Shown here: positions 4,268 through 37,875 of the stretch, piece by piece
Layout: each line of letters opens with the position of its first letter
Position numbering within the stretch: position 1 is the stretch's first letter
IMG/VR virus record: IMGVR_UViG_3300009001_000002
Span: 1 to 61,190 of that record
DNA from: a virus
Lineage: Duplodnaviria; Caudoviricetes
DNA length: 61,190 bases
Direction: 5' to 3' (one strand)
The notes under the pieces: model-generated
Told to the model about the DNA's origin: nothing
What the model saw: only the letters and a program-made list of their open reading frames with translations
The model's database searches: none
Position numbers and translations under genes: made by a program

Positions 4268-5029
4268 ATGGCCGATATTGAAGCTATTAAAAAGAAGATC
4301 GCAAAACTACTTGCGATGGCTAACGATTCAGGTGCTTCCGAAGCTGAAGCACAGATGGCTTTTGAAAAAGCACAGGAGTATCTTGCGGAGTATAATTTAA
4401 ACGCAGAAGATGTTACTAACGATTTAGAACATGAAGATATTACTGATGAAGCTTTTACAGAGCAAGTAAGAGAGAACTGGCAGATTAGTTTACGAACTGC
4501 TACTGCTCGTCTTTACTTTTGTAAATACTATTATTCTACAGGAGTGTTAGACGAGAACTACAAGAAAGCTACGGAACATAATTACGTAGGGAGACCGCAT
4601 AATATAGCGGTTGCAAAGTCGATGGTATCGTATCTTATTAATACGATCAAGAAACTAGGAGAAGAACATGTCGCTCCTATTGCCGGCGATAAACGTATGC
4701 TTAATGGTATTCGAAGAAACTTCGAACTAGGTTGTGCTTCTAAAGTTACATCGAGAGTAAACGAAAGATACCGAGAGATTGAATCACAAGATCCCGGGCA
4801 TTATCAAATTGCGGGAGAGAAAAGTAATCTTCCTGCTCTTTATAAATCAGAACTAGCTTTATGCCAAGATCACTTAAAGAATCAAGGCATTCATCTTACT
4901 ACTTCGAGAACAAAACGTAACGTCACGAATGGTATGGCTTATTCACGAGGTAGATCAGCGGGTGAGAAAGTATCACTAAATACACAGTTGAATAAGAGCA
5001 GTTCTCGTTATATGTTAGGGAATGGCTAA
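4268..5029 (+). CDS. DUF2786-type protein
   Basis: KIAKLLAMA...SEAEAQMAFEKAQEYLAEYNL N-terminus; AAAGGAG RBS. Confidence 0.7.
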   Translation: MADIEAIKKKIAKLLAMANDSGASEAEAQMAFEKAQEYLAEYNLNAEDVTNDLEHEDITDEAFTEQVRENWQISLRTATARLYFCKYYYSTGVLDENYKKATEHNYVGRPHNIAVAKSMVSYLINTIKKLGEEHVAPIAGDKRMLNGIRRNFELGCASKVTSRVNERYREIESQDPGHYQIAGEKSNLPALYKSELALCQDHLKNQGIHLTTSRTKRNVTNGMAYSRGRSAGEKVSLNTQLNKSSSRYMLGNG

Positions 5030-5282
5030 AATAGAAGATTGCGATATCGTTCATGTCATCTGGTGGGATGCGTTTGACGCATTAGGAGCCGGGTGGCATG
5101 AATGGGAAGATATCGATAAAAAAGCAGTCTTAGCTAAGTGTAATAGTGTTGGCTATTTATATAAGGAAGATGACGAAAAGATCGTGCTTGTAGGAGATGA
5201 AACCGGCGAGTTCGGTTCAAGAATCACGGTCATCCCGAAAGCATGGACGATTGAGATTAAGATATTGAAGGCAAAAAAATGA
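5022..5282 (+). CDS. Conserved phage hypothetical protein
   Basis: VIWWDA...W...SVGYL...IPKAW pattern; coupled to the upstream gene. Confidence 0.6.
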   Translation: MAKIEDCDIVHVIWWDAFDALGAGWHEWEDIDKKAVLAKCNSVGYLYKEDDEKIVLVGDETGEFGSRITVIPKAWTIEIKILKAKK

Positions 5283-6796: not shown

Positions 6797-7128
6797 GCGG
6801 TAGAGAAAAAGCTTTAAGTGTTGCGAGGGATTATCTCTCGCATCACATTCAATCGGAAATGATCGATGTTCATTACTTCGATAACGACCTTACGATTGGT
6901 TGGGCTGAGGCGGAAGAAAAATACTATATGCGTATCGGTGAATTATCTACGCATTGGGGAACTGCGAAAGATATGCGTAAGTGGTTAGACACGATTGAAG
7001 ATCAAAGAATCATCAGCATGTTTTGTTATTTATTTAAAGATTGGGATTTAAATACATTTGAAATTATCCAAGAGATTTATGAAATGTATAGTGATCCTAA
7101 TAGAGAGGAAAATGATGGCAACAAATAG
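6793..7128 (+). CDS. Hypothetical early protein
   Basis: ATGA coupling. Confidence 0.55.
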   Translation: MSGREKALSVARDYLSHHIQSEMIDVHYFDNDLTIGWAEAEEKYYMRIGELSTHWGTAKDMRKWLDTIEDQRIISMFCYLFKDWDLNTFEIIQEIYEMYSDPNREENDGNK

Positions 7129-7402
7129 AAAAGATTATATGGTTAGCTATATGCGAGGCTATATGAGGAACAAGAAAGTCTATTACCTCAATGACATCAC
7201 GGATGCTTGCATGGAGAAAATTTTATATCACTGGCAGCGCCGTGCGGAAAAAGAAGGAATAGTCGGTAAGATCAGTAAAGGTTTAATATTGAATCATATC
7301 GTGCAAGACTATATGAAGAAATCGGTTCCTAATGGTACGGAATTTCTTTATAATAAAATAAAGGAGAAAGAAGATGCGAAAAGTAGAGATCAAGACAGTT
7401 GA
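7058..7402 (+). CDS. Hypothetical early protein (true start probably near 7112-7115)
   Basis: GAGGA RBS before MMATN. Confidence 0.5.
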   Translation: MKLSKRFMKCIVILIERKMMATNRKDYMVSYMRGYMRNKKVYYLNDITDACMEKILYHWQRRAEKEGIVGKISKGLILNHIVQDYMKKSVPNGTEFLYNKIKEKEDAKSRDQDS

Positions 7403-12474: not shown

Positions 12475-12936
12475 ATGGATAAAGGACCCGATAATATTAT
12501 TGATTTTACTAGTGCCGAAAATAAGATTTTATCAGACAAGGAAAAGAAGTTTGTTGAATTCATATTTCAAGGTTTAGGTAAGAAACAAGCGGCTTTAGAA
12601 GCTGGTTACGCACAATCTGCAGCGCACGTTCAAGCGACACGCCTACTAAAGAAAGATAAAATACGCAAGGCCCTTGATCGATTACGCTCTCTTCAACACC
12701 AACAAACAGTTCATACGATGGACAAGGAGATCGAAGCTATTGATGCCATGATCCAAGAAGCTAGAGACAGAGGGCAAATCGGTGCAGCGGTCCAGGCAGC
12801 TAGACTCAAAGCACAAATGTTAGGGTACCTTGTTGATAAGAAAGAGATTAAGACAACAAACCTTGACACCATGAGCGAGGACGACATCGTCAATTATCTT
12901 GATTCATTAAAAGCATCCTACAGCAACACGCAGTAA
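12475..12936 (+). CDS. terS: Terminase small subunit
   Basis: LSDKEKKFV...KQAALEAGYAQSAAHVQATRLLK HTH, then coiled coil and A...LKAQMLG. Confidence 0.8.
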   Translation: MDKGPDNIIDFTSAENKILSDKEKKFVEFIFQGLGKKQAALEAGYAQSAAHVQATRLLKKDKIRKALDRLRSLQHQQTVHTMDKEIEAIDAMIQEARDRGQIGAAVQAARLKAQMLGYLVDKKEIKTTNLDTMSEDDIVNYLDSLKASYSNTQ

Positions 12937-14534: not shown

Positions 14535-15185
14535 ATGGCTTTTCTCACTGTGAATATTCCCCCTATTGAAGTTTATGTCAAAAAAGAGTATCTTTACGAC
14601 CATGAAAAAGGTCATGGAGAATTTGAAAAAGGCGTGTGGGTCACTGCTAAGTCGATTACCGGCAGAGCTTTGTATTTCGAAACGTACTTATATAATTCTG
14701 GCGCTCTTTATGATAAGTTGCCTATATCTGCTTTCTGTTCAAAGCCAGTAGATAAAGACGATAGCTTACCACTAGAAGAGTTACAGTTATGGGATTGTTT
14801 TAGTTATCATGTAGCTGTAATCCAGAAATGTAATCCCGGGACAGGGCGTTGCAAGTATTTATCCCCAAGTAAAAATTGGCACTACGGAACTTATTTGTTC
14901 ACGATAGATTCTGCTCACCCTGATCCCAATATTCCTGATGTCGGATATTCTGAAGTCCCGAGCCAACATAAGTCGTTTAATATTCTAGAACTAGATAACG
15001 GCCACTATGCGGCGCAACCGAATAACCGAGTTATTTTTTATGACAAGAGTTTATCTCCAAAAGAAATGACGTTCCCTGATTATAAAGTTTCGACTATTGA
15101 ATATAGTGTCGAGCATCATTCTAAATGGGTCGCTGGAGATGATGAAAGTTTCTTTTATGAACTTAGAGATACTACAAAAAGCTGA
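14535..15185 (+). CDS. Conserved phage hypothetical protein
   Basis: NIPP...KEYLYD...LQLWDCFSY...AAQPNNR pattern seen in marine phages. Confidence 0.7.
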   Translation: MAFLTVNIPPIEVYVKKEYLYDHEKGHGEFEKGVWVTAKSITGRALYFETYLYNSGALYDKLPISAFCSKPVDKDDSLPLEELQLWDCFSYHVAVIQKCNPGTGRCKYLSPSKNWHYGTYLFTIDSAHPDPNIPDVGYSEVPSQHKSFNILELDNGHYAAQPNNRVIFYDKSLSPKEMTFPDYKVSTIEYSVEHHSKWVAGDDESFFYELRDTTKS

Positions 15186-16665
15186 ACAAATAATCTTAGA
15201 TAAGAACGCTCCTCAAGAGATTCGAGAAAAAGCGTTCCTGGTCATCAAGAATCAAAAAGAAAAACAGGAAGTATCTGGAGCACAAACTTCGATATTAAAG
15301 TTCGCTCAACACATGTATAATGGGTACTCGACACCTGCTCATATACAATTAATCGCAAAAAATTTAGAAGCTTTAGAACGAGATGAATTTGATCGTCTAG
15401 CGATTTTCATGCCACCAAGACATGGAAAGTCAATGCTATGTTCCGAGATGTTTCCTGCTTGGTTTCTCGGTCGTAATCCTAAAAATTTCGTTATTCAATC
15501 TACGTATGCTCAAGAACTAGCTGATGATTTTGGACGCAAGGTGCGTAACCACGTGAAATCGGAAGAGTTCCTTAAAGTTTTTCCGAACACGACACTGAGA
15601 GATGATTCAACTTCAGCGAAACGTTTTCACACCGTTCAAGGTGGAACGTATTCAGCGGTTGGTGCGGGTGGCGCAATTACCGGTCGTGGTGCACACTTAC
15701 TCATTATTGATGATCCGATTAAAGGGCGTGAAGATGCGGAATCTCAAGTTCAAAGAAGGAATCTCATTGAATGGTATAAGTCGGTTGCTTTCACACGATT
15801 AATGCCGGGCGGAAAAGTAATCATCATTCAAACACGATGGCACGAAGAAGATCTCGCCGGTTTCGTTTTAGAAAATGAACCAGGGCAGTGGAAAGTTTTA
15901 GATCTTCCTGCGATTAATGATAACGGGGATGCTCTCTGGCCTGAAGCCTATCCTCTTGAAAAATTAAAAAAGATTCAAGCGACAGTCGGAGAAAGAGTCT
16001 GGCAAAGTTTATACCAGCAGAAGCCATCAGCAGAACAGGGGCAAATCTTAAAAAGAGATTGGTGGCAAATATGGGATAAGAAAAGATTTCCTGGATGCCA
16101 CACGATCATTCAATCGTGGGATACGGCGTTTTCAGCGAAACAGTCAGCGGACTATTCAGCGAGAACAACGTGGGGAGTGTTTACACATATAGACGAAGAA
16201 GGAAGAGATCAAGCTTGTATAATTTTATTAGAAGCTTGGCGTAATCGTGTCGAGTATCCTGAACTACGAAAAGAGGCTCAACAATCATTTTTCGATTGGA
16301 AGCCCGATGTCGTCTTAGTCGAGAAACGAGCATCAGGACAAAGCTTACTTCAAGATCTACGAAGAGCAGGAATTCCTGTGAAAGAATTTACACCCGATCG
16401 AGATAAAGTTTCGAGAGCCCATGTCGTAGCTTCCATGTTAGAAACGGGACTCATTTGGGTTCCTAATGAAGCGTGGGTAGAAGATTTAATTGAAGAATGT
16501 GCTTCCTTTCCTTATGGAAAGCACGACGATTTAGTCGATACGTCAACTCAAGCGTGGCAGCTTATACGAGATAATTATTTAGTTTCTCACCCGAACGATC
16601 CCGAAGATGAAGAATGGGACGATAAACCTTATCGAGTAATACAGAAAAAGTCCTTTTACAGTTAA
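15097..16665 (+). CDS. terL: Terminase large subunit (true start probably near 15139-15157)
   Basis: MPPRHGKS Walker A, LLIIDDP Walker B, QTRWHEEDL, SWDTA and HDDLVD nuclease motifs. Confidence 0.95.
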   Translation: MNIVSSIILNGSLEMMKVSFMNLEILQKAEQIILDKNAPQEIREKAFLVIKNQKEKQEVSGAQTSILKFAQHMYNGYSTPAHIQLIAKNLEALERDEFDRLAIFMPPRHGKSMLCSEMFPAWFLGRNPKNFVIQSTYAQELADDFGRKVRNHVKSEEFLKVFPNTTLRDDSTSAKRFHTVQGGTYSAVGAGGAITGRGAHLLIIDDPIKGREDAESQVQRRNLIEWYKSVAFTRLMPGGKVIIIQTRWHEEDLAGFVLENEPGQWKVLDLPAINDNGDALWPEAYPLEKLKKIQATVGERVWQSLYQQKPSAEQGQILKRDWWQIWDKKRFPGCHTIIQSWDTAFSAKQSADYSARTTWGVFTHIDEEGRDQACIILLEAWRNRVEYPELRKEAQQSFFDWKPDVVLVEKRASGQSLLQDLRRAGIPVKEFTPDRDKVSRAHVVASMLETGLIWVPNEAWVEDLIEECASFPYGKHDDLVDTSTQAWQLIRDNYLVSHPNDPEDEEWDDKPYRVIQKKSFYS

Positions 16666-24894: not shown

Positions 24895-25359
24895 ATGTCA
24901 AGTTATATAGATCAATTCATTTATGATCCAAATAGAGATACTCAAAGAACATTTGAAGAAGCTCAAGCAGAATTAAAAAGTAATAAAGCTTATTCAGTTG
25001 AAGAAGAAAAATTAGACGTAGATTTAGAAAACGAAGATACTGAAAAAGATAATGAAAAAGTTGATGAAGCTTTAGAAAAAGCTGAAAAGAAAACCGATGA
25101 AGCTGTATCTCAATTAGCTAAATATGCTGATGCTTATAAAAAAATAGCTTCTTCTTCCTCTGCTACAAAACCAATTACAGGGCAAAATTTAATGGGAACA
25201 CCTAGTTCAATGGGAGCGTTTGGACCAATGAGTCAAGTACAACAATCTACTAGTCCTTATTTTGCAAGTCAAGGAGTTTTGTCAGCTGCCAAAATGAAAG
25301 AACTAGATTCAAAAATAGCTACATTAAGAAAAATTTTACAAGGAGGTGTCAATGTCTAG
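24895..25359 (+). CDS. Hypothetical protein
   Basis: Long ORF in the structural module. Confidence 0.55.
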   Translation: MSSYIDQFIYDPNRDTQRTFEEAQAELKSNKAYSVEEEKLDVDLENEDTEKDNEKVDEALEKAEKKTDEAVSQLAKYADAYKKIASSSSATKPITGQNLMGTPSSMGAFGPMSQVQQSTSPYFASQGVLSAAKMKELDSKIATLRKILQGGVNV

Positions 25360-25639
25360 TTCAGATATTTTCGCTAAAAGCACTACAACAACAGGAAGTG
25401 ATGTTACTTTATTCGCTGGCCCAATAAGAATAAAAGGATTCATTATAACTCCTACGGGCTCAGCAGGTACTGTTACTTTTAAAGATGGTAGTACTACACT
25501 ATTCGCACTAAGCACAGCTGCATCTGCATCATCTGGTCCAGTTCAGATTTCATTACCATCTGAAGGTATCAAATGTTCAACTAATGCTACTGTAAACTTA
25601 ACTGCAGGTGTATCAGCGATAACAGTATTTATGGCGTAA
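25346..25639 (+). CDS. Small beta-rich virion protein
   Basis: S/T/G-rich; GGAGG RBS before Met 25352. Confidence 0.55.
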   Translation: MSMSSSDIFAKSTTTTGSDVTLFAGPIRIKGFIITPTGSAGTVTFKDGSTTLFALSTAASASSGPVQISLPSEGIKCSTNATVNLTAGVSAITVFMA

Positions 25640-26322
25640 TGGCAACATCAGGAACAGCTACGTTTAATCTAACGGTTAATGATGCGATTCAAGAAGCTTT
25701 AGATCGTATCGGAGGCGATCCCGTTTTAGGTTATGATATACGTTCAGCGAAACGTAGTCTTAATGTTATGTTTGCTGATTGGGCAAATCGTGGTGTTAAT
25801 CAATGGACACTTGAAAAGAAAACAGTAACTGTAACACAGAACACTCCTACTTATACTTTAGATTCCGACACTGTTGATATCGTAGATATGTATGTTACTA
25901 GAAGTAGTACTGATTATAGCGTAGAGCGTATTAGTTTAACTGATTATAACGCTTATCCTAATAAATTAACGACAGGGAGAGCAACTCAATTTTATTTACA
26001 AAAAGATAGAACGCCTGAATTATATATCTATCCAACACCTGATAATTCTACTGATGTTATTACTTATTGGAGAATAAGAAAAATACAAGATATTACAGCA
26101 CTTAGTGCGAGTGGAAGTGAACAAGATATTGATATTCCTTTTCGATTTTATGAATGTATGGTTGCTGGTTTAGCTTATTATATGGGAATGAAAAGACCGA
26201 ACATAGATTTAAATAAATTATCGTATTTAAAAGCTGAATACGAAACTGCATTTACGAGAGCGAAAGACGCAGATTTAAACGAAACATTTAGAATAGTTCC
26301 AGGTTATCGAAGTGGCTTTTAA
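25639..26322 (+). CDS. Head-tail adaptor / tail tubular protein (putative)
   Basis: MATSGT..F...SAKRSLN.MFADWANRG.N.W...YPTPD...AGLAYY. Confidence 0.65.
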   Translation: MATSGTATFNLTVNDAIQEALDRIGGDPVLGYDIRSAKRSLNVMFADWANRGVNQWTLEKKTVTVTQNTPTYTLDSDTVDIVDMYVTRSSTDYSVERISLTDYNAYPNKLTTGRATQFYLQKDRTPELYIYPTPDNSTDVITYWRIRKIQDITALSASGSEQDIDIPFRFYECMVAGLAYYMGMKRPNIDLNKLSYLKAEYETAFTRAKDADLNETFRIVPGYRSGF

Positions 26323-26686
26323 TAAACGTGGACCGACTAAAGCACCATCTTTTCCTTTTGCTAGAGGAAAATATGCTAGAGCAATTTCAGATCGTTCAGG
26401 ATTAGAATTTCCTTATTTAGAAATGGTTCGTGAATGGAACGGACTACTAGTTCACACTAGCGAGTATGAACCAAAACAACCACAACTCGATCCCATAGTT
26501 TTTAGTGATCCAGAAGCACTAAAGAATGCCAGACCTCAGGCTCCTCTTTCAGCTACAGGAGGCGTACCTAATCAATTATCAGTAATCTATCCGGGCACTT
26601 TTGGAGACACAGGACAAGAAGTAGGAGTAGCTACCGGAAACCAAACAGAATTGGAGTTAGGAAATGTCTCAGTCGTCATCAGCTAA
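26312..26686 (+). CDS. Conserved structural-module protein
   Basis: GKYA.AISDRSG..FPY..M..EWNG...EPKQPQL. Confidence 0.6.
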   Translation: MAFNKRGPTKAPSFPFARGKYARAISDRSGLEFPYLEMVREWNGLLVHTSEYEPKQPQLDPIVFSDPEALKNARPQAPLSATGGVPNQLSVIYPGTFGDTGQEVGVATGNQTELELGNVSVVIS

Positions 26687-27449
26687 AGATGCATATATAA
26701 TGCTTTGTACACCATGTTATGGTGGTATGATGCATGAAGCTTACTTTCATAGTGTAGTAAAATTATTTCAAGAAGCAAGAGATAAAAATTTTAAAATTCA
26801 TTTAAATACTATGGGAAACGAAAGTTTAATTACTAGAGGAAGAAACACGATGGTATCTCAATTTATGGATAATGAACACTGCACTCATTTATTATTTGTA
26901 GATTCCGACATCGCTTTCTATCCTGAATTAGTTACTAAATTATTAGAATTTGATAAAGATGTTGTAACAGCTATCTATCCTCGAAAAACTATCGAATGGA
27001 AGAATTTAGAGTACTACGTTAAAAAAGGAGATCTAAAAACTATGGAGCAGAAGTTATTAGGATATAACTTAAACTTTCCTGATCCTTTAAATATAGACGT
27101 ACAAGACGGATTCGTAGAAGTATTAGATGCCGCTACAGGTTTCATGCTTATTAAAAAAGATGTATTTGTAAAAATGAGAGAAGCGTATCCTGAATTAAAA
27201 TATACTTCTGATCAGATTATTAATAATAAAACGTATTCTAGTGATTGGTGTTATGCTTTTTTCGATTGTATGATTGATCCTAAAAGTAATCGATATCTAA
27301 GTGAAGATTACACATTCTGTCGTAGATGGCAGCAAATAGGTGGAAAAATATACGCTGAAATAACATATCCATTAACTCATTACGGAACTTACGGTTTTAG
27401 AGGAAATGTATCGCATAAATTTGCAAAAAAAGATAGTATAGACATATAA
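26664..27449 (+). CDS. GT-A-fold glycosyltransferase-like protein
   Basis: TPCYGG, ESLITRGRN, LLFVDSDI (DxD), ATGFMLIK, LSEDYTFC, H.G. Confidence 0.72.
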   Translation: MSQSSSAKDAYIMLCTPCYGGMMHEAYFHSVVKLFQEARDKNFKIHLNTMGNESLITRGRNTMVSQFMDNEHCTHLLFVDSDIAFYPELVTKLLEFDKDVVTAIYPRKTIEWKNLEYYVKKGDLKTMEQKLLGYNLNFPDPLNIDVQDGFVEVLDAATGFMLIKKDVFVKMREAYPELKYTSDQIINNKTYSSDWCYAFFDCMIDPKSNRYLSEDYTFCRRWQQIGGKIYAEITYPLTHYGTYGFRGNVSHKFAKKDSIDI

Positions 27450-28102
27450 TGGCAACAACTTATTCAGCTTTAAAAACCGACATTCAAACCTGGATGCAGA
27501 ATACAGGAACTGATTTTACTAATCAGTTAGATACGTTTATTAATAACACGGAACAGCGATTATTAAGGGAAATAGATCCTGAAGCTTTCGTTTTTAATAA
27601 ATTTACTGCTTTAACAAGTGGTAGTCGTTTTTTAAATAACCCAAGCGATCTTCTTATTATTAAAAATCTTTTAATAGAAAACGGAGATGATAGAATTTTT
27701 CTTGAGATGAAAACTGATGAATTTATATATGAATACTGGCCTGATGATAGTCAAACTGCTCTTCCTAAATATTTCGCTAATTATGACGATGATATAACAT
27801 TAATAGCACCTACGCCAGATTCGAATTATAGAGTAGAAATGCAGTATGTTGGAAGAATTGAAACTCTTTCTGCGACCAATACGACTAATTGGTTAACAGA
27901 AAATGCTGATGACGCATTACTTTACGGTTGTTTATCGGAAGCTTCTATCTTTACAAAGAATATGGAAGATTATGCGTTATATGATAAAAGATATCAGGAA
28001 ATCGTTGCGGGATTGAATAATCAATCTAGAAGGCGCAGACGAACTGACTACAAATTCCCTGCTAGCCCTGCTGGCACGGACACCTTGACAGGAAGCCAAT
28101 AA
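27449..28102 (+). CDS. Tail adaptor/tubular protein (putative)
   Basis: P.Y.A...APTPD..Y...TNWL..NA.DALLYG.L.EA. Confidence 0.6.
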   Translation: MATTYSALKTDIQTWMQNTGTDFTNQLDTFINNTEQRLLREIDPEAFVFNKFTALTSGSRFLNNPSDLLIIKNLLIENGDDRIFLEMKTDEFIYEYWPDDSQTALPKYFANYDDDITLIAPTPDSNYRVEMQYVGRIETLSATNTTNWLTENADDALLYGCLSEASIFTKNMEDYALYDKRYQEIVAGLNNQSRRRRRTDYKFPASPAGTDTLTGSQ

Positions 28103-28114
28103 GGAGGTAACATC

Positions 28115-28534
28115 ATGGCAATAACTCAAGCACTCTGTACTGTATTTAAGCAGGATTTAATGGACGCAGGGCAAGACTTAACTTCAGCGACATTAAAGAT
28201 AGCTTTATATACCAGTTCAGCAACTTTAGACGGAACTACTTCCGCCTATTCTACATCTAATGAAGTAACCGGAACAGGTTACACTGCGGGTGGAGAAACA
28301 TTAACAAACGTAGTCGTTGCAACAGACGGAACGACAGCATATCTTGATTGTGATAACGCATCATGGTCAAGTGCTACGATTACAGCAAGAGGAGCGTTAA
28401 TTTATAATAACTCTAACTCTAACTCAGCTATTTGTGTTTTAGATTTTACGGAAGATAAATCATCTTCAAACGGAACATTTGAAATACAGTTTCCAGCCCC
28501 TGGTGCAAGCACTGCTTTAATTAGAATTGCTTAA
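28115..28534 (+). CDS. Virion structural protein
   Basis: KIALYTSSATL...Y...NEV.GTGY.AGG...TARGALIYN. Confidence 0.6.
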   Translation: MAITQALCTVFKQDLMDAGQDLTSATLKIALYTSSATLDGTTSAYSTSNEVTGTGYTAGGETLTNVVVATDGTTAYLDCDNASWSSATITARGALIYNNSNSNSAICVLDFTEDKSSSNGTFEIQFPAPGASTALIRIA

Positions 28535-28983
28535 TGGCATTAATAGTAAACGATAGAGTAAAAGAGGAAACAACCACGACTGGTACGGGCACTGTCTCAC
28601 TAGATGGTGCTGATACCGGTTTTGAAACTTTTGTTACAGGTATTGGAACAGGAAATGAAACGTATTACTGTATTGCAGCCGGTTCCGAATTTGAAGTAGG
28701 AAGAGGAACTGTTACAAGTGGAACTCCTGATACTTTATCTCGTGATACTGTTATTTCTTCTAGTAATTCTGACGCTTTAGTTAATTTTTCTGCAGGAGCC
28801 AAATCAGTTTTTTGTACATATCCAGCAAGTCAAGCACCTTCACCAAGTATGGATGCTACGACTTATATTAACACTCATAACTCAACAATTTCTGAAGATC
28901 AAAATATTGACTCTGCTGTTTTAGCAGGACCAGTGACAATCACAGGAACAGTCGTAGCAACAGGAACACTGGCGATCATCTAA
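28534..28983 (+). CDS. Tail-associated protein
   Basis: DRVKE.TTTTGTG...EVG.GT...LSR.TV.SSSN...F.AG.K.VF.T.PA. Confidence 0.6.
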   Translation: MALIVNDRVKEETTTTGTGTVSLDGADTGFETFVTGIGTGNETYYCIAAGSEFEVGRGTVTSGTPDTLSRDTVISSSNSDALVNFSAGAKSVFCTYPASQAPSPSMDATTYINTHNSTISEDQNIDSAVLAGPVTITGTVVATGTLAII

Positions 28984-30701
28984 TGTCATTACTCGAAGTT
29001 AATAAAATTACCCCTCAATCAGGAACAACTCTCACACTCGGAGATACAGGTGATACCATTAACTTTGGCAGTGGTGTTCTTCCTAATTTTGAAAATTTAA
29101 CAGTCACCGGCGATCTTACTGTTGATACAAATTCTTTAAAAGTTGATAGCACGAACAATAGAGTAGGTATCGGAACAGCGAGTCCTAGTGCTACTTTACA
29201 TGCACAAAGTTCTACAAACACTCTTTTATTTATTGATAGCACAGACGCAATTTCTGGATTGGCTATGGCGGATACCACAGGTTCAATTTTAATGAGAACA
29301 GCAAGTAGTGGTATTTTACAATTTTACATAGGTGGCGATGCTTCTACGACCGGATCAAATTCCTCAGAAGCTATGCGCATTGATAGTTCTGGTAATGTAG
29401 GAGTGGGTGAAAGTAGTATAGAGAGTAAATTTCACGTCAAAGATAATTTAGCTTCTACAGGAGTAGGTACTTCTTCTAATCCTATTGTTATTATTCAAAA
29501 TGAAAGATTGAATACAGGAACTAGTTCTGCTGTATTAAGATTTGATACCAATGAAATTGCGGGTAGCCAACAACACCCAAGAGCATCTATTGCAGCTGAA
29601 CTTGGTAGTCAATCTAGTAATGTAGATGGTAGATTATTATTCGCTACAACAGATGTTTCTGGAAATATGACAGAACGTATGCGTATAGATAGTTCTGGTA
29701 ATGTCGGTATTGGTACAACTTCAATAAGTACTTTGGGTAGTAATCACACTACATTACAAATTAATGGCACAAGCATAGACAGAACTGGTGCTTTAAGATT
29801 ACGTTCATCTAATGACAGTGTAGATAGTGCATTGTGGGCATCTACTACTTCAACTTATTTAGCCACTATATCAAACCATCCTTTACAATTTCGTACTAAC
29901 AATACAGAACGTATGCGTATAGATAGTTCTGGTAATGTAGGTATTGGAATGACACCTGCACCATTAACAGGTACAAACACAGTTTTATCTTTATATAATA
30001 GTTCAACACCAAGAATAAAATTACATAACTCTACCACAGGAACAACAAGTACAGATGGTGCAGAAATTAATATGTCATCTTCTGATTTGATTATTGAAAA
30101 TAGAGAATCTGGTAATCAAAGATTTTATACTAATGGTGGGGAACGTATGCGTATAGATAGTTCTGGTGATACATCAATGGGTGTCACAAGTGTTTATGAT
30201 GGCTCAAGATTAAGTGTTGAGAAAGCAGGTAAAGTTGCATCATTTTTTACAACATCTACATTTACTCAGGACATTATTAATATTGGAAATAAAAATGGTG
30301 GATATTCTTCTAAACCACTCAGATTTTGGAATGGTAACCCAGAGGGTAGTGGAAGTATTGTTGGTGAAGTTGTTTGTAGTACAACAGCTACATCTTACAA
30401 CACATCTTCAGACTACAGACTAAAAGAAAATGTAAACTATGACTTTGACGCACCAACAAGATTAAAACAATTAAAACCTGCAAGATTTAATTTCATAGCT
30501 GATGCCAATACAACTGTAGATGGTTTCCTAGCACACGAAGTTTCAGATATTGTTCCAGAAGCTATTACAGGAACAAAAGATGAAGTAGATGGCGAAGGTA
30601 ACCCTGTTTATCAAAGCATCGATCAAAGCAAATTAGTCCCTTTATTAGTGGCCACTATTAAAGAACTAGAAGCAAGAATAGAGGCGTTGGAAAATGCTTA
30701 A
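28983..30701 (+). CDS. Tail fibre 1 with C-terminal S74 intramolecular chaperone
   Basis: ERMRIDSSGNVGIG repeats; TSSDYRLKENV...GFLAHEV...DQSKLVPLLV. Confidence 0.85.
   Translation: MSLLEVNKITPQSGTTLTLGDTGDTINFGSGVLPNFENLTVTGDLTVDTNSLKVDSTNNRVGIGTASPSATLHAQSSTNTLLFIDSTDAISGLAMADTTGSILMRTASSGILQFYIGGDASTTGSNSSEAMRIDSSGNVGVGESSIESKFHVKDNLASTGVGTSSNPIVIIQNERLNTGTSSAVLRFDTNEIAGSQQHPRASIAAELGSQSSNVDGRLLFATTDVSGNMTERMRIDSSGNVGIGTTSISTLGSNHTTLQINGTSIDRTGALRLRSSNDSVDSALWASTTSTYLATISNHPLQFRTNNTERMRIDSSGNVGIGMTPAPLTGTNTVLSLYNSSTPRIKLHNSTTGTTSTDGAEINMSSSDLIIENRESGNQRFYTNGGERMRIDSSGDTSMGVTSVYDGSRLSVEKAGKVASFFTTSTFTQDIINIGNKNGGYSSKPLRFWNGNPEGSGSIVGEVVCSTTATSYNTSSDYRLKENVNYDFDAPTRLKQLKPARFNFIADANTTVDGFLAHEVSDIVPEAITGTKDEVDGEGNPVYQSIDQSKLVPLLVATIKELEARIEALENA
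29673..29699 (+). repeat. Exact 27-bp repeat GAACGTATGCGTATAGATAGTTCTGGT (also at 29907, 30141, 35897)
   Basis: Read directly; the first three copies are 234 bp apart. Confidence 0.85.
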
Positions 30702-30745
30702 ATTCTTTTATACTAACCCTAAAAACACCAAGGAGGTGAATTAAA

Positions 30746-31054
30746 ATGGCAATAACCTACGAATGGAGCTTCCCTAATTTTGAAGTTGATGGCTCTGATA
30801 ATGTAAAAACAGTCCATTGGAGACTGACCGCTACTGACAGCGAAGTTGATGCTGACGGTAACGCTTATACAGCATCCATGTATGGAAGCTGCAATGGTGC
30901 AGACATGACGTTTGCTACCATGACAAAACAGAACGCAATTGATTGTGTGATCGAACACGGAGGTCAAGCAGAAGCAGATATGCAAGCTAATCTTGACAGC
31001 CAGATCGCAGCATCAAAAGCGCCTGCAACAACAAGTAAAACGAAGGAGTTTTAA
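30746..31054 (+). CDS. Tail-fibre-associated small protein
   Basis: TYEW...V..VHWR..ATD; AAGGAGG RBS. Confidence 0.55.
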   Translation: MAITYEWSFPNFEVDGSDNVKTVHWRLTATDSEVDADGNAYTASMYGSCNGADMTFATMTKQNAIDCVIEHGGQAEADMQANLDSQIAASKAPATTSKTKEF

Positions 31055-31269
31055 TGTTTACTTTTGACGACAAAGAATATGACGAAACCAAACTGAATCA
31101 GCAAGGACAAGAGGCGTATGGCCACTTGAAGCTGATTGCGAGTCAAGAACTCGATCTCCAAGTGAAGATTAATCACTTATCAATATTGAAAGCACACTAT
31201 ACAAGTGCCTTAAAAGAAAATCTTCCGACTGTCGAAGAGAAAAAAGAAGAGGAAGAGAAAAAGGAATAA
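31054..31269 (+). CDS. Small coiled-coil protein (fibre-chaperone-like)
   Basis: Coupled; DDKEYD...L. Confidence 0.5.
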   Translation: MFTFDDKEYDETKLNQQGQEAYGHLKLIASQELDLQVKINHLSILKAHYTSALKENLPTVEEKKEEEEKKE

Positions 31270-31275
31270 GGCAGT

Positions 31276-33495
31276 ATGGCTAGCGAATTAAAAGTAAATA
31301 AGATTTCTCCCGAGTCAGGCACCACCCTGACTCTGGGTGATTCTGGAGATACGATTAATTTCGGTAGCGGCGTACTGCCTAACTTTGAAAACCTCACGGT
31401 CACGGGTGATCTGACCGTTGATACAAATTCTTTAAAAGTAGATTCTACCAATAATTTTGTCGGTATTGGTACTGCTTCACCAAGTGTCGCTTTGGATGTG
31501 GTCGGAGCCATTACCGCTACAGGTAATATCACAGGAACACTCGCAACAGCTTCTCAACCGAACATTACATCAGTAGGAACTTTAAGCAGTTTATCTGTTA
31601 GTGGAAATATCACAGGAACTTTAGCCACCGCAGCACAACCTAATATTACAAGTTTAGGAACACTCACAGGATTAACCACAACAGGGAATATTAATTTAGG
31701 TGATAGTGATCGATTACGATTAGGTGCCTCACAAGACTTACAAATTTTTCACGATGGATCACATTCTAATATTATAGATAATGGTTCTGGTAATTTAAGA
31801 CTGGGAGGAGACACTCAAATTTACTTAGGTAGATTTTCCGGGGACACTCCAAGTGAGGCATATGCAACATTTAATTCTAATGGTGCTGTTAATTTATATT
31901 ATGATAACGCAGTTAAACTATCCACCACATCTACAGGTATAGATGTTACAGGAACCGTGGTTAGTGATGGATTGACTGTTGATGGTAATGCTACTGTAAG
32001 TGGTAACTTAACCGTTGATACAAACACTTTTTTTATTGATAGCGTAAATAATATCGTAAGAATTGGGGATAATTCTAGTTACACTCCCAACACATCAGCA
32101 GATGATCTTATTGTTGGAACCACTACCTCTGGTTCAAAAACAGGTATAACTATTTTATCTTCAAATGATGTAGCATTTTCAAGAGGAAGTATTTATTTTG
32201 CTGATTCTGCCGCAGATTCTGTTGGCAGAATAGAATACAATCATGGCACTTCTGATACTGATGTAATGAAGTTTTTCACTAATACCACAGAAGCCATGCG
32301 TATAACCAGTGCTGGTCGTGTGGGTATTGGTACAACAAGTCCAACTAACGAATTAATGGTAGCTGGTGGAACAGACACCAGAATTACTATTGATGGTAGT
32401 TCTTCATCGGGTTTATATATAACCGATAGTGGTGCTAGTGGAGTTACTATTAGAAACACTAATGACGGTGATTTAGAGTTTTTAGGAGTAAGTGGAAAAT
32501 CATTTGTATTTAATCAAGCAAGTGTAAACACAGATTTTAGAATTGAAAGTGATGCAAATGCCAACATGTTTTTTGTTGATGCTAGTACTAATAGAGTTGG
32601 TATTGGTACAAATAGTCCTAGTTCTTTACTTGACCTTGTTTTTTCAAGTACAAATACCTCACCAACACCGGGTAATTCTACTTTAAGAATTAGACAAACA
32701 GCAAGCGGCACTAATGGATATTTTTCTGCCATAAATTTAAGCACAGCAACGGTTGGAGATAGTGCTGATTCTTTAATTGTCAATTATGGAATTACAAATG
32801 GACAAAGTGCTTTAGCCTTTTTTACAGATAATTTAAATACTTGTTCTGAAAGAATGAGAATAGATCAAAATGGTCGTGTCGGTATTGGTACAACGAGTCC
32901 TGAATCTACTTTGCATGTTCAAGGTTCTGAAATAAAAGCAAAAAATTCAACTAGTGCTTTTGTAACTATTGAAGCTGGTTCAGCAAGTTACCAATCAATA
33001 TTACAATTTTCTGATGGAGGTGCTTCAGGTGCATTAATTTATGATCACCCAAGTAATTACTTAGCAACTAAAGTCAATGGCTCAGAAGCTATGCGTATTA
33101 GTAATTCTGGCAATGTCGGTATTGGTATAACTTCACCCGGTGTTGCTTTAGATGTATCTGGTGCGATTAGAGCAACAGGTGATATTACAGCGTTTTATAC
33201 TTCCGATAGATCTTTAAAAACTAATATAGAAAATATTTCTGATCCTATAAATAAAGTAAAAGAATTAAACGGTGTTTCTTATAACTGGACTGAAGCTGCA
33301 CAGAAAAAATACAGTCATCTTAATGATCAAAAAGAAATTGGTGTCATTGCTCAAGATGTAGAAAAAGTTTTACCTGAAATGGTAGCACAAAGAGAAGATG
33401 GCACAAAAGCAGTTCGTTACGAAAGAATGTGTGCTTTATTAATTGAATGTGTAAAGGATTTACAAAATCAAATAGATGAATTAAAGGATAAATAA
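31276..33495 (+). CDS. Tail fibre 2 with S74 chaperone
   Basis: Shared N-terminal module, TAAQPNITS.GTL repeats, MRI...G.VGIGT repeats, TSDRSLKTNI...GVIAQDVEKVLPE. Confidence 0.85.
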   Translation: MASELKVNKISPESGTTLTLGDSGDTINFGSGVLPNFENLTVTGDLTVDTNSLKVDSTNNFVGIGTASPSVALDVVGAITATGNITGTLATASQPNITSVGTLSSLSVSGNITGTLATAAQPNITSLGTLTGLTTTGNINLGDSDRLRLGASQDLQIFHDGSHSNIIDNGSGNLRLGGDTQIYLGRFSGDTPSEAYATFNSNGAVNLYYDNAVKLSTTSTGIDVTGTVVSDGLTVDGNATVSGNLTVDTNTFFIDSVNNIVRIGDNSSYTPNTSADDLIVGTTTSGSKTGITILSSNDVAFSRGSIYFADSAADSVGRIEYNHGTSDTDVMKFFTNTTEAMRITSAGRVGIGTTSPTNELMVAGGTDTRITIDGSSSSGLYITDSGASGVTIRNTNDGDLEFLGVSGKSFVFNQASVNTDFRIESDANANMFFVDASTNRVGIGTNSPSSLLDLVFSSTNTSPTPGNSTLRIRQTASGTNGYFSAINLSTATVGDSADSLIVNYGITNGQSALAFFTDNLNTCSERMRIDQNGRVGIGTTSPESTLHVQGSEIKAKNSTSAFVTIEAGSASYQSILQFSDGGASGALIYDHPSNYLATKVNGSEAMRISNSGNVGIGITSPGVALDVSGAIRATGDITAFYTSDRSLKTNIENISDPINKVKELNGVSYNWTEAAQKKYSHLNDQKEIGVIAQDVEKVLPEMVAQREDGTKAVRYERMCALLIECVKDLQNQIDELKDK

Positions 33496-34493
33496 TGCCT
33501 ACACCTACAGGTCAAATAAGTTTATCTGACGTCAATGTAGAACTAGGAAATAGTTCTACCGCTCAAATCAACATGGGATCTTCTGCTGTTAGAGGATTAG
33601 CAGATGTCGCTTCAGGCGCAATCACTATGAATAATCTAAGAGGTAAATCTTCTTGGTCAAATTATACAATTACTTACGTCATTATCGCAGGTGGTGCGGA
33701 AGGAGGTAATTGGGTTGGTGGTGGCGGTGGAGCAGGTGGTGTTGTAACAGGTTCAGGTTCTGCTTCAACCATGGGTGGTGCTTCTGCTCCTACTCAACTA
33801 ACAGTCACTGTTGGTGCTGGTGGTTCTAATGGTGCTATCGGTGGAGCAACGGGGGCTAATGGTTCCAACTCTTCTATAACAGGAGCAACTACTGCTCAAG
33901 GCGGTGGAGGTGGTGGTGCTAATGGAGGCAATGGTAACGGTGCTGACGGTGGTTCTGGCGGTGGCGGAGGTAAGTTTGGTAATGGTAGTGGAGGTAATAA
34001 TGCTTCTGGCCAAGGTAATATTGGAGGTTCTGGTAACAGTAGTCTTGACGGTTCTGAAGGTGGTGGAGGTGGTAAAGGCTCTGCTGGTGGAAATGCAGGT
34101 CAAAACGGTGGATCAGGTGGATCAGGCGCATCTATTACAATATCAGGAGTGAGTAAAGGTACAAAAGCCGGCGGTGGCGGAGGCTGTGCTCAAGCAAATC
34201 GAACTGGTGGTTCTGGTGGTTCTGGTGGTGGAGGTAACGGTAAAGCAGATGATGAAACTACTTTAGGTTCAAGTATTAATGGTGATACAAATACAGGTTC
34301 TGGTGGTGGAGGCGCAAGAAATAGAAAAGATGAAGGAGATAGAGGAATTCCGGGCACGGGTGGATCTGGTATTATTTATATTAGTGTTCCGACTTCAAAT
34401 TACTCAGGAACCACAACAGGGAACCCTTCCGTACAAACATCTGGATCCAATACTATTTTAACATTCACAGGTTCAGGGAGTTACACAACATAA
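33495..34493 (+). CDS. Glycine-rich tail-tip/adhesin protein
   Basis: P.GQISLSDVNVELG N-terminus and polyglycine GGGGG/GGSG repeats. Confidence 0.7.
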   Translation: MPTPTGQISLSDVNVELGNSSTAQINMGSSAVRGLADVASGAITMNNLRGKSSWSNYTITYVIIAGGAEGGNWVGGGGGAGGVVTGSGSASTMGGASAPTQLTVTVGAGGSNGAIGGATGANGSNSSITGATTAQGGGGGGANGGNGNGADGGSGGGGGKFGNGSGGNNASGQGNIGGSGNSSLDGSEGGGGGKGSAGGNAGQNGGSGGSGASITISGVSKGTKAGGGGGCAQANRTGGSGGSGGGGNGKADDETTLGSSINGDTNTGSGGGGARNRKDEGDRGIPGTGGSGIIYISVPTSNYSGTTTGNPSVQTSGSNTILTFTGSGSYTT

Positions 34494-34855
34494 TGGCACA
34501 TTTCGTACAGTTAGATGAAAATAATAAAGTAATACAAGTAATCGTTGTTAATAATGATGTTATAGTCGATGGTGAAGGAAATGAACAAGAATCTTTAGGT
34601 ATTGCTTTTTGTCAGTCTTTATATGGCGATAATACAAATTGGAAACAAACGTCTTACAATGCTAGTTTTAGGGGTAAGATGGCAGGAATAGGTAGCACTT
34701 ACGATAGTGAAAATGATATTTTTATTCCACCTCAGCCCTTTCCTAGTTGGACTTTAAATGATATAAATATATGGATACCACCTGTTCCTTATCCTACAGA
34801 TGATACCGTTACGTATCTTTGGGACGAGGAAAACACACAGTGGGTTCAAGGTTAA
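34493..34855 (+). CDS. Conserved partner of Gly-rich fibre proteins
   Basis: MAHF..LDENN.V..V.VV...WKQTSYN..FR...AGIG..YD...F..PQPFPSW. Confidence 0.65.
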   Translation: MAHFVQLDENNKVIQVIVVNNDVIVDGEGNEQESLGIAFCQSLYGDNTNWKQTSYNASFRGKMAGIGSTYDSENDIFIPPQPFPSWTLNDINIWIPPVPYPTDDTVTYLWDEENTQWVQG

Positions 34856-34858
34856 AAA

Positions 34859-36700
34859 ATGAGTGAACTTAAAGTAGATAAAATAACCCCGAGACTCGGT
34901 ACTACCTTAACGTTAGGTGATGCAGGGGACACGATCAATTTTGGTAGTGGCGTTTTACCGAACTTCGAGAACTTAACGGTGACAGGAGATTTAACCGTTG
35001 ATACGAATAGTTTAAAAGTTGATAGCACGAATAACTTCGTGGGTATTGGCACGGCATCACCTAGCGTGGCCTTAGATGTCGTAGGAGCGATCACAGCCAC
35101 AGGAAATATTACAGGAACTTTAGCAACAGCTTCTCAGCCTAATATTACTTCGGTTGGCACACTGACTTCGGCTACAATATCAGGCGATCTAACAGTAGAT
35201 ACAAACACATTGTATGTGGATAGCACAAATAATCGTGTGGGTATTGGTACAACTAGTCCTCAATCTGGTTTAGATTTAACCTCATCTATAAAAGGTTCGT
35301 GGACATCGGGAAATGTATATTCTTATCCAACAGGTAATGCTTATATAAAAGTACAAGGCACTTCAAATGAACATAATTGGATTGGTATATCGGGGGTATA
35401 TGATGATAACTCAAGTTCTGCTAACTTATTACTTCAGGCAAATTTACGAAATACAAATGAACAAGCAGGAAATTATATAGGTTCTGAAGCACAAACATCT
35501 ACCTCAGCACATTTAACTTTTGGTAAATTGATTGGTGGTTCTGCTGTTGGAGTAAATGCCACAAAAACTGAAGCTATGCGTATAGATAATTCTGGTAATG
35601 TCGGTATTGGTACAACAAGTTTAGGTACTTATAAATTATCTGTTGATAGTGGAACAGCAGGAAATACAAATGCTGAAGCAGGCTTATATTTAAGTGGTAC
35701 TAGAGCAGGAGTTGTTTACAACATTGTTTCTAATACAGCAAATACAACTACAGATAAAGGTAGTGGTATTAAATTCCAAAATGGTGGATTTGATACAGGT
35801 GCAATAATTATTAGAAATGATGGTGCGTCTGTTTCTGGTGATTCAGCAGGATATATGACCTTTCATACATCAGATGACGGAACTGAAAATCTTTCAGAAC
35901 GTATGCGTATAGATAGTTCTGGTAACTGGATGGTAGGTAAGACGAGTGTTGACCTTGGTGTTACAGGAGTTGAATTTAGAGCAGGTTCTTACAATGCTAT
36001 GACTAATGATGGTGGTGTTCCTCTTTATTTGAATAGATTAACCTCGGATGGTGGTATTCTTGAATTTAGAAAAGATGATGCAACAGTAGGTAGTATCAAT
36101 GCTTCTGGTTCACGATTAGGAATAGGTAGTGGTAGTGTTGGTCTTTGGTTTGATAATACAAGTTATGGTGCTGTGCGACCTTTTAATGTATCTACAAACA
36201 GTGATAACGATAATGTAGTTGATTTAGGTTCTTCTGGTTCAAGATTTAAAAACGCATACTTATCCGGCAACGTCTATCTCGGTGGAACAGGAAGTGCCAA
36301 TGCCTTAGATGATTATGAGGAAGGTACATTTACTCCATTAGTAGAAGGTACTACTACATCAGGTTCAGCTACTTATACAACAAGAGTAGCAAAATATACT
36401 AAAGTAGGAAATATTGTACATTTTAATATATTTATTAGATGGCAATCAGGAACTGGTTCAGGTCCTTTTATAATAACAGGATTACCCTTTACTTCAGTAG
36501 GTTCTAGTTATCATAGTGCAGTCACTATCGGTTGGATGAATGATTACGATTACACGAATGGAAAAATTCCAAGAGCATACGTACCAAGTAGTATTAGTAG
36601 AATTAATTTTGAAGAATCTACCGACAATGGTGGTTCAACTAATTTAAATTATGATTCTCAAGCGGGATTAATTTTATCTGGAAGTTATGAAACAAGTTAA
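34859..36700 (+). CDS. Tail fibre 3
   Basis: Shared N-terminal module; ANALDDYEEGTFTP...YTKVGN.V...GLPF C-terminal domain. Confidence 0.85.
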   Translation: MSELKVDKITPRLGTTLTLGDAGDTINFGSGVLPNFENLTVTGDLTVDTNSLKVDSTNNFVGIGTASPSVALDVVGAITATGNITGTLATASQPNITSVGTLTSATISGDLTVDTNTLYVDSTNNRVGIGTTSPQSGLDLTSSIKGSWTSGNVYSYPTGNAYIKVQGTSNEHNWIGISGVYDDNSSSANLLLQANLRNTNEQAGNYIGSEAQTSTSAHLTFGKLIGGSAVGVNATKTEAMRIDNSGNVGIGTTSLGTYKLSVDSGTAGNTNAEAGLYLSGTRAGVVYNIVSNTANTTTDKGSGIKFQNGGFDTGAIIIRNDGASVSGDSAGYMTFHTSDDGTENLSERMRIDSSGNWMVGKTSVDLGVTGVEFRAGSYNAMTNDGGVPLYLNRLTSDGGILEFRKDDATVGSINASGSRLGIGSGSVGLWFDNTSYGAVRPFNVSTNSDNDNVVDLGSSGSRFKNAYLSGNVYLGGTGSANALDDYEEGTFTPLVEGTTTSGSATYTTRVAKYTKVGNIVHFNIFIRWQSGTGSGPFIITGLPFTSVGSSYHSAVTIGWMNDYDYTNGKIPRAYVPSSISRINFEESTDNGGSTNLNYDSQAGLILSGSYETS

Positions 36701-36712
36701 AGGAGCAAAACA

Positions 36713-36970
36713 ATGGCAATAACAAAAGAAACAACTATCGCTAAAATAGAAGTCGTAGGTGATTACAAAGCTGTGCAAATTGCTACTGATACAGTCATCA
36801 AAGAAGATGGTGTAGAGTTATCAAGAAGCAGACACAGACATACAGTTCACCCAGACCAAGATATTACAGGCGAAGATGCAGAAGTACAGGCAGTATGTAA
36901 TGCTGTTTGGACACAAGCAGTGAAAGATGCTTGGACTGCGTTTCAAGCTGAGCAACAAAATAATATCTAA
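36713..36970 (+). CDS. Tail-fibre-associated small protein
   Basis: KIEVVG....Q......EDG.ELSRS.HRH...VQAVCNAVWT. Confidence 0.6.
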   Translation: MAITKETTIAKIEVVGDYKAVQIATDTVIKEDGVELSRSRHRHTVHPDQDITGEDAEVQAVCNAVWTQAVKDAWTAFQAEQQNNI

Positions 36971-36978
36971 TTTAAACA

Positions 36979-37875
36979 ATGTCGTTTTCTAGCGTTTCAT
37001 TTTCTGAAGCACCGTTTTCCGCAGAAGGAAAAATAAATATTGAAATCCTTATTACAGGACTTCAAGCGAGTACTTCTTTAAATTCCGTTACAGTATCTAC
37101 GGAACAGTTTATTTCCGTTACAGGAGTAGAAGCAACTACTACTCTTTCAGATGAAATCGTAGTCGGAAACGCTGTTATTATTGAAACAGGTGAAGAAGCG
37201 ACTGTTTCATTAGGAAACGAAGCAGTAATCGGAAGTGCTAATATTTCTATTACAGGATTAGAAGCAACTACTACTCTTTCAGATGAGGTTGTCGTAGGAA
37301 ATGCTGTCGTTATCGAAGAAGGTGTTGAAGCGACAGGAAACGTTTCTAGTGTTACAGTTGCTGTAAATCAAATATTCAGCGTAACAGGTGAAGAAGCACA
37401 AAGCGTGCTTTCAGATGAAGTTGTAGTCGGAAATGCTGTAATCGTCATTACGACAGGGGTTCAAGGAAATACTCAATTAGGAAACGAAACAGTTGTAGCG
37501 GATGCAAATGTCGTAGTTACAGGTGAAGAATTAACATCAGCTTTAAGTGGAGTTGAAGTATCAACTGATCAAATTTTATCCGTAACAGGTCAAGAATTAA
37601 CATTAACTTTAAATAATGTAGTAGTTTCAACTAGTGCTTTAGTTACAGCTACAGGAAATGAATTACAATTAATTCAAGGAAACGTTACAGTATCTACTGA
37701 ACAAATTCTTCCAATTTCTGGATTTTCTGCTAATATAAGTTTAGGTTCACCTAATATCTGGCAAGCAATACCAGGAATTAGTAATACTTGGACGGAAGTA
37801 GATGCATCTTCGACTAATACATGGTCAAATGTAAATACTTCAAGCACAAACACATGGACAAAGGTAGCGGCATAA
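36979..37875 (+). CDS. Repetitive V/T/G/E-rich virion protein
   Basis: About 21-aa V.VTG.EAT..L repeats. Confidence 0.6.
   Translation: MSFSSVSFSEAPFSAEGKINIEILITGLQASTSLNSVTVSTEQFISVTGVEATTTLSDEIVVGNAVIIETGEEATVSLGNEAVIGSANISITGLEATTTLSDEVVVGNAVVIEEGVEATGNVSSVTVAVNQIFSVTGEEAQSVLSDEVVVGNAVIVITTGVQGNTQLGNETVVADANVVVTGEELTSALSGVEVSTDQILSVTGQELTLTLNNVVVSTSALVTATGNELQLIQGNVTVSTEQILPISGFSANISLGSPNIWQAIPGISNTWTEVDASSTNTWSNVNTSSTNTWTKVAA

Follow-up and report, generated by a model that had tools for sequence, protein, structure and literature searches.

How can two genes of one phage genome encode the same 80 residues with largely different codons, and does such a difference call for selection on the DNA itself? 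The question is raised by the tail-fibre genes of the virus record IMGVR_UViG_3300009001_000002, which we analysed over its whole length of 61,190 nt (hereafter the window). The record carries direct terminal repeats, is rated 100% complete and represents the entire genome of a marine tailed phage of 61 kb, with three genes for tail fibres; it also encodes a large terminase, a portal, a major head protein and a DNA-ejection-like protein. The fibre genes lie in tandem, all on the plus strand (F1, 28983–30701, 572 aa; F2, 31276–33495, 739 aa; F3, 34859–36700, 613 aa), and are matched by PHROG tail-fibre families. An earlier note, made from the letters of the window alone, had proposed that their common N-terminal module is under strict protein constraint while its DNA is pushed apart, which would suppress deletions by recombination between the genes. 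Our analysis bears out the first half of this interpretation, a common module with strict protein constraint, and not the second, DNA selected to diverge. At a probability of roughly three in four, we favour a reading in which the fibre classes are old, their trimeric anchor is strongly constrained, the synonymous sites have reached saturation and pieces of the genes have been exchanged in a mosaic fashion. No selection for DNA divergence is needed.

The three copies were aligned in register on the start of the shared block, GDTINFGSGV, at positions 29049 (F1), 31345 (F2) and 34925 (F3). Over the block, F2 (31345–31584) and F3 (34925–35164) encode the same peptide, with 80/80 identical residues as had been claimed, and a hand count of about 50 differing codons turned out to be exact (30 identical, 50 different). 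The nucleotide identity of this block is 0.758 and its longest in-register exact run is 14 nt. Serine switches between the TCN and AGY boxes, also pointed out beforehand, are found at two block positions, 28 (TCT/AGT) and 33 (TCT/AGC). F1 shares 46 of its first 47 residues with F2 and F3 (29049–29189), in line with the 45 or so given in the earlier note, and 51 of 80 over the block; it indeed uses a third codon set, with 18 codons identical to those of F2 and 16 to those of F3. The window genome contains exactly three full modules of this kind. The protein identity between F2 and F3 is due to homology, and their codon differences are at the level of chance saturation, not beyond it.

This last statement is based on a null model in which codons are drawn from the usage of 58 genome open reading frames (ORFs), modules excluded, and the peptide is encoded twice independently. 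F2 and F3 have 30 identical codons out of 80, compared with 33.7±4.3 expected at saturation (P(≤30) = 0.23), and with the usage of structural genes the expectation is 36.1±4.3 (P(≤observed) = 0.09). The pairs involving F1 are also at genome-usage saturation (18/46 for F1–F2 and 16/46 for F1–F3, each against 20.2), and the simulated nucleotide identity for F2–F3 is 0.778, against the observed 0.758 (P = 0.23). By the Nei–Gojobori method (NG86), the proportion of synonymous differences (pS) is 0.83 with zero residue differences, so that the synonymous divergence (dS) is undefinable; at 4-fold degenerate sites, 16 of 45 are identical and 11.8 are expected. We also shuffled the codons of each module among positions with the same residue. 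This permutation gave 27.6±3.6 identical codons for F2–F3 (30 observed), 19.8 for F1–F2 (18 observed) and 18.3 for F1–F3 (16 observed). As these expectations are close to the observed values, there is no tendency toward a different codon at the same position, and the sole departure from genome-wide saturation is one of composition, namely more GC-ending codons. Codon identity at saturation under genome usage is also the outcome that the earlier note had itself named as a sign of old neutral divergence.

If the DNA had been driven apart to prevent deletions by recombination, exact matches between the modules would be expected to be short. The longest F2–F3 run of 14 nt equals the simulated median of 14 nt (P(≤14) = 0.50), and the F1–F2 and F1–F3 runs of 23 and 21 nt fall at the long end of chance, the simulated medians and means being 13–16 nt; none of the three is shorter than chance. 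In addition, the direct repeats with the longest exact match between or within fibre genes lie outside the modules, in a body motif, ERMRIDSSGN (plus strand, 29670–29938 in F1). They consist of a 35-nt repeat within F1 (29670 and 29904) and a 31-nt repeat shared between F1 (29671 and 29905) and F3 (plus strand, 35895–35925), and both exceed every module-to-module exact match. The motif is also present in F2 and F3, with nine copies in total, and F1 shows a 234-nt periodic repeat around it, with copies at 29670, 29904 and 30138 (29670–30201) and exact matches of 27–35 nt.

To see how the module varies in other phages, we collected relatives by a scan of IMG/VR (best 80 of 545 confirmed stretches) and of metagenome contigs (best 80 of 241). 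Together with the window they provided 39 modules at ≥70% identity, or 38 after exclusion of the divergent L016. These 38 modules comprise 29 distinct DNA versions of a 37-codon core, 19 of which encode exactly GDTINFGSGVLPNFENLTVTGDLTVDTNSLKVDSTNN. Synonymous variation affects 36 of the 37 core columns and residue variation 7. Switches between the serine boxes are likewise polymorphic across the family, with threonine intermediates at positions 7, 44 and 46. The same degree of recoding thus separates modules from different genomes, and 19 of 29 DNA versions on one peptide mean that recoding without protein change is family-wide, including copies that reside in separate genomes. Strict constraint on the protein of the common module is therefore supported: the anchor is strongly frozen, with one 37-residue peptide written in 19 DNA sequences across phages, and within a single genome an 80-residue block stays identical in two genes at saturated synonymous divergence.

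The relatives also indicate where the differences between the window copies come from. The modules follow one of four leader classes, A (MSLLEVNKITPQSG), B (MASE[LI]KVNKI[ST]PESG), C (MSELKVDKITPR[LQ]G) and D (MSQLEVDKIIPQSG). F1, F2 and F3 begin with class A (MSLLEVNKITPQSG), class B (MASELKVNKISPESG) and class C (MSELKVDKITPRLG) leaders, respectively. All three of these classes are also found in L002, and classes A and C in L095; a two-fibre lineage (L006, L092, L093/L094) carries D and B. A DNA tree was built from leader and core together (30 rows, without L016 and eight exact duplicates). Class A forms one branch in it and class C another (100/100 each), and the class B copies of the three-fibre lineage form a third (100/100); every one of the three unites a single window module with modules from other contigs. 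The tree is circular in part, since the classes are defined by the leader, which is itself in the alignment. A tree of the core only keeps the F2 module (WIN_2) with its class B counterparts (98/97) and places the F1 module (WIN_1) among class D cores (93/85); it does not resolve the class C cores or the remaining class A cores. Class-specific codons at core positions 0, 1, 5, 10, 11, 13 and 14 are kept across contigs. This class-wise grouping and the kept class codons indicate that the differences between the window copies are inherited and arose before these phages split. That other phages have counterparts of each class with matching codons likewise implies that the classes are old and that their synonymous sites drifted to saturation with the peptide fixed.

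What could hold the peptide so firmly? The three fibre genes have the N-terminal domain in common (46–47 of 47 core residues) and different downstream parts, the bodies being unrelated beyond residue ~70 in F1 or ~103 in F2 and F3. No Pfam family was found on the N-terminal module. A profile of 24 modules matches PDB entries 8ojn (E = 6.5e-5) and 8ond (E = 5.3e-4) in a short 'rvGiGTasPsvaLdV' repeat only. These entries belong to a set of Bdellovibrio fibres (8ojn, 8onb and 8onc, annotated as 'cell wall surface anchor family protein', and 8ond, bd2133) with a repeated 'rvGiGTtaPtsaLhV' element that is also found along the window fibre bodies; the match spans ~30–60 residues, and the first 50 module residues have no solved relative by sequence. 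An AlphaFold model of residues 1–134 as a monomer is extended and of low confidence (predicted local distance difference test, pLDDT, 71.6; predicted template-modelling score, pTM, 0.32). When three copies of residues 1–125 were modelled together, the score rose to 0.85, compared with 0.24 for the best control; contacts are ≥98% concordant between runs, the partner pLDDT is 88 or higher, and inter-chain contacts extend over residues 1–114. In the calibration of this score, 20/30 solved pairs and 1/23 single chains attained the mark; it was made with two copies and the tool's own alignments and is rough for a trimer, and the pass may also reflect likeness to solved fibres. Most likely, the module is an intertwined homotrimeric shaft with nearly every residue at an interface, as the model predicts.

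Each fibre opens with a class-specific leader of ~22 residues, after which comes a common anchor or shaft module of ~50–100 residues. This module presumably attaches the three fibres to one and the same structure of the virion, the leaders possibly assigning the fibres their positions on the socket. For such an interface-dense anchor on a shared socket, we propose that nearly any residue change would be removed by selection. Bodies and pieces of the module are also swapped between classes and between phages, giving the genes their mosaic character.

Several tracts point to such exchange. Identity between the window and L014 or L015 is 92% over 25318–29176 and falls to 82–87% in the module, after which the sequences are unrelated. 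A class C fibre of L002 (7074–7414) contains 341 nt that are 95.6% identical to the F1 body (29365–29705), a match that by its sequence reads as a recent swap of fibre bodies between anchor classes. Class A cores of L014, L015 and L101 have exact runs of 27–44 nt with the class C cores of the window and L002. In L006, the two co-resident modules (classes D and B; 2949–3340 and 4752–5150) share an exact tract of 77 nt with diverged flanks, suggestive of gene conversion between fibre genes in tandem. The swapped bodies and shared tracts together show recombination in and around the module, both between classes and between phages.

Some observations weigh against this reading of old classes at saturation. 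When the null is drawn from the usage of the remaining fibre genes, F2–F3 identity falls below expectation (30 vs 39.0, P = 0.02), as does that of F1–F3 (16 vs 23.4, P = 0.015). In the three-fibre lineage, all seven co-resident pairs have a codon identity over the 47-codon core (0.27–0.46) below the between-contig mean of the same class pairs (0.45, 0.51 and 0.41); the fractions of between-contig pairs at or below each of the seven are 0.18, 0.00, 0.11, 0.15, 0.30, 0.46 and 0.36. The total identity of the F2 and F3 blocks also stands apart: among 129 between-contig pairs with codon identity below 0.5, none has zero residue differences (mean 4.5; six pairs with at most one). GC-ending codons are in excess in F2 (25/80, P = 0.004) and F3 (32/80, P = 1.5e-5), against 14.9±3.5 expected, as the earlier note had seen, and the cause of the raised proportion of codons ending in G or C (GC3) in the three-fibre lineage is left unexplained by age and constraint. 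Finally, docking on a common socket, and the trimer interface as the cause of constraint, are inferred, and the partner of the anchor is putative.

These points would be expected if selection, or the survivorship of stable genomes, kept co-resident modules apart in DNA. GC-ending codons would then be used because three different codings are hard to achieve with the preferred AT-ending codons alone, and module GC3 is indeed 0.23–0.51 in the three-fibre (A/B/C) lineage, compared with 0.09–0.19 in the two-fibre (D/B) lineage. The deficit relative to fibre-body usage and the seven of seven co-resident pairs below the mean agree with this, the two modules L002_1 and L002_2 being the lowest of all A × B pairs (12/44 codons identical), and the 77-nt tract of L006 shows that co-resident modules do recombine. 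However, the seven pairs come from three contigs only and are not independent. In the two-fibre lineage, the three co-resident pairs (0.55, 0.51 and 0.70) are all at or above the mean of 87 between-contig pairs (0.50). The permutation detects no position-specific avoidance once module composition is kept, and all classes shift toward the same C- and G-ending codons, not toward complementary sets. We also found no deficit in the longest exact runs of co-resident pairs, the F1 pairs of the window (23 and 21 nt) being the longest of their rows, and the genome tolerates the 31-nt (F1–F3) and 35-nt (F1-internal) exact repeats of the fibre bodies. Moreover, at ~76–78% identity any extra divergence should protect little. 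On balance we consider selection or survivorship acting on DNA divergence unlikely.

With regard to the residue identity, the F2–F3 block of the window has zero differences and the other three co-resident pairs have 5, 4 and 4; both window copies equal the family consensus except for a serine at block position 69. Assembly bias against similar repeats, by which contigs would break at them and those with several modules would be enriched for diverged copies, was not shown by the position of modules (11 of 36 lie at most 500 nt from a locus end, vs 8.1 expected for uniform placement; P = 0.15), and it stays a caveat of the co-resident comparison.

A further bearing on selection comes from the extent of the GC3 excess, which is present in the F2 and F3 modules, is not significant in F1 (11/47 GC-ending codons vs 8.7 expected; GC3 0.23) and in F2 extends over two upstream genes. 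The F2 island (plus strand, 30746–31600, ~850 nt, GC3 0.34–0.41) covers the DUF7936 gene that follows F1 (plus strand, 30746–31054, GC3 0.37), a 71-codon gene beginning MFTFDDKEYDETKLN that fills the apparent intergenic gap between the DUF7936 gene and F2 (plus strand, 31054–31269, GC3 0.41) and the F2 module (0.34), and GC3 drops to 0.18 in the F2 body. The two upstream genes are unrelated to the module. The same pattern, GC3 of 0.33–0.47 followed by 0.19–0.23, is repeated in 6/6 class B contigs of the three-fibre lineage, and the 71-codon gene occupies the same position in 6/6 related contigs (GC3 0.37–0.44). In 4/4 contigs of the two-fibre lineage, the two small genes are missing and module GC3 is 0.13–0.17. 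The F3 island runs from the start codon to about codon 120; the F3 block has a GC3 of 0.40 and ranks sixth among 1176 genome windows of 80 codons. For the first 105 codons of 53 genes of at least 110 codons, F3 ranks first in GC3 and F2 fifth. Recoding aimed at the module fits this pattern less well than would a local bias or a compositional island with its own history.

A stability filter could act in the three-fibre lineage on the combinations of module alleles that a genome can keep: look-alike modules would lose fibre genes by recombination, and sets of GC-ending codons would be maintained. We regard this as quite improbable. If it were true, co-resident pairs would be systematically more diverged than cross-genome pairs.

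Equally doubtful in our view is that F2 and F3 acquired their modules recently from a GC-richer phage with the same anchor and still show the codon signature of the donor. The fibre genes of this group are demonstrably mosaic, and the sharp limits of the GC3 tracts match those of mosaic blocks (30706–31585, common to L002, L004 and L011 at 83–87% DNA identity; 34855–35085, shared with L002). On the other hand, the GC3-rich block occurs in 6/6 class B contigs, and the island is kept in the one orthologue pair measured, WIN_2 and L002_2, at a dS of 0.83, so it is not a fresh import. No contig with an identical core peptide has a GC-rich background (GC3 0.12–0.26 in other ORFs), and the two GC-richer contigs L020 and L031 (GC3 0.28–0.31) carry divergent cores.

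The weakest explanation, that antisense frames over the modules are genes whose coding needs shape the codon choice, seems to us highly implausible: ORFs of 82–111 aa do cover all three modules (minus strand, 29015–29278, 31197–31532 and 34852–35100), but the third positions of this frame coincide with sense third positions, a stop would need a sense tyrosine, histidine or glutamine after a T- or C-ending codon in a module that has no tyrosine or histidine and whose lone glutamine appears to close the frame, every sense codon difference also changes the antisense peptide, and a need to encode a second protein should make synonymous divergence smaller and not larger; the antisense ORFs are most likely a by-product of composition.

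Old, constrained and saturated fibre classes are thus the reading we retain, and the case gives no evidence that a new mechanism of evolution is at work: old paralogues under strong constraint are expected to show the same protein on different DNA in tandem genes. The module offers a handle to find and classify fibre genes in uncultured marine phages and to ask about their shared socket. The GC3-rich islands raise a smaller question on compositional heterogeneity in AT-rich phage genomes. Other segments of the window also reach a GC3 of 0.40–0.48 in 80-codon windows (7079–7402, 12475–12936 and 15139–16665), and the genome is compositionally patchy. A ramp of rare codons at 5' ends was considered as a cause of the raised GC3 and rejected as too small, with a genome-wide GC3 of 0.23–0.25 for codons 1–120 compared with 0.20–0.22 beyond.

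Phages with several receptor-binding proteins and a conserved N-terminal anchor are known from the tailspike complexes of Ackermannviridae and from the branched systems of Klebsiella phages of the KP32/K11/KP34 type (PMC11414711, PMC13352976). These systems are alike to the window in having several fibre genes with a conserved N-terminus and exchangeable, unrelated C-terminal parts. They differ from it in that the window has the same N-terminal domain three times, with class leaders, and no primary fibre with a branching domain; the fibre N-termini of the window have no sequence match to either system in the Pfam search.

Exchange of N-terminal parts of the T7 gp17 type is a further known case of this kind. 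Another known fibre element is present at the other end of the proteins: F1 (23.5 bits) and F2 (61.4 bits, E = 1e-16) carry the C-terminal Peptidase_S74 intramolecular chaperone (PF13884, Pfam cut-off 22) of tail fibres and endosialidase-type spikes, and F3 gave no PF13884 match in the Pfam search. This domain is unrelated to the N-terminal block. In engineered constructs, repeated genes are recoded synonymously to prevent homologous recombination. The outcome is alike here, an identical peptide on ~76% identical DNA, whereas the divergence in the window is that of neutral saturation and is shared across genomes. In full-text searches of the literature, no paper on synonymous recoding of fibre genes that share a phage genome was listed, which is not proof of absence.

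Among isolates, the large terminase is 42–45% identical to those of phage 023Pt_psg01 and the Pelagibacter phages HTVC027P and HTVC023P. Pelagiphages of the HTVC023P/HTVC027P type (57–61 kb) are thus like the window in genome size and terminase, and the relation is distant. The 9-kb fibre region gives only short matches of 80–97% in seven pelagiphage records, and the fibre module protein matches two pelagiphage records only, over 45 residues at 64–67%.

We also compared public runs with the window. The 24 runs listed all consist of contigs, which drop rare variants, and X1–X4 were compared over 28500–37000. Contigs of X1 span each module without differences. No deletion with a module-to-module offset (2296, 3580 or 5876) was present among the joints listed (15 of 29, X1–X4 contigs), contigs being uninformative on rare recombinants.

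Between F2 and F3 there are a gene for a glycine-rich protein of 332 aa (33495–34493; PF21722 Gly_rich_2, E = 2e-13), which is full of short GGT-rich DNA repeats, and a 120-aa gene (34493–34855). A small 85-aa gene after F3 (36713–36970) starts with MAIT, as does the DUF7936 gene after F1, and may be a distant DUF7936 paralogue likewise placed behind a fibre gene.

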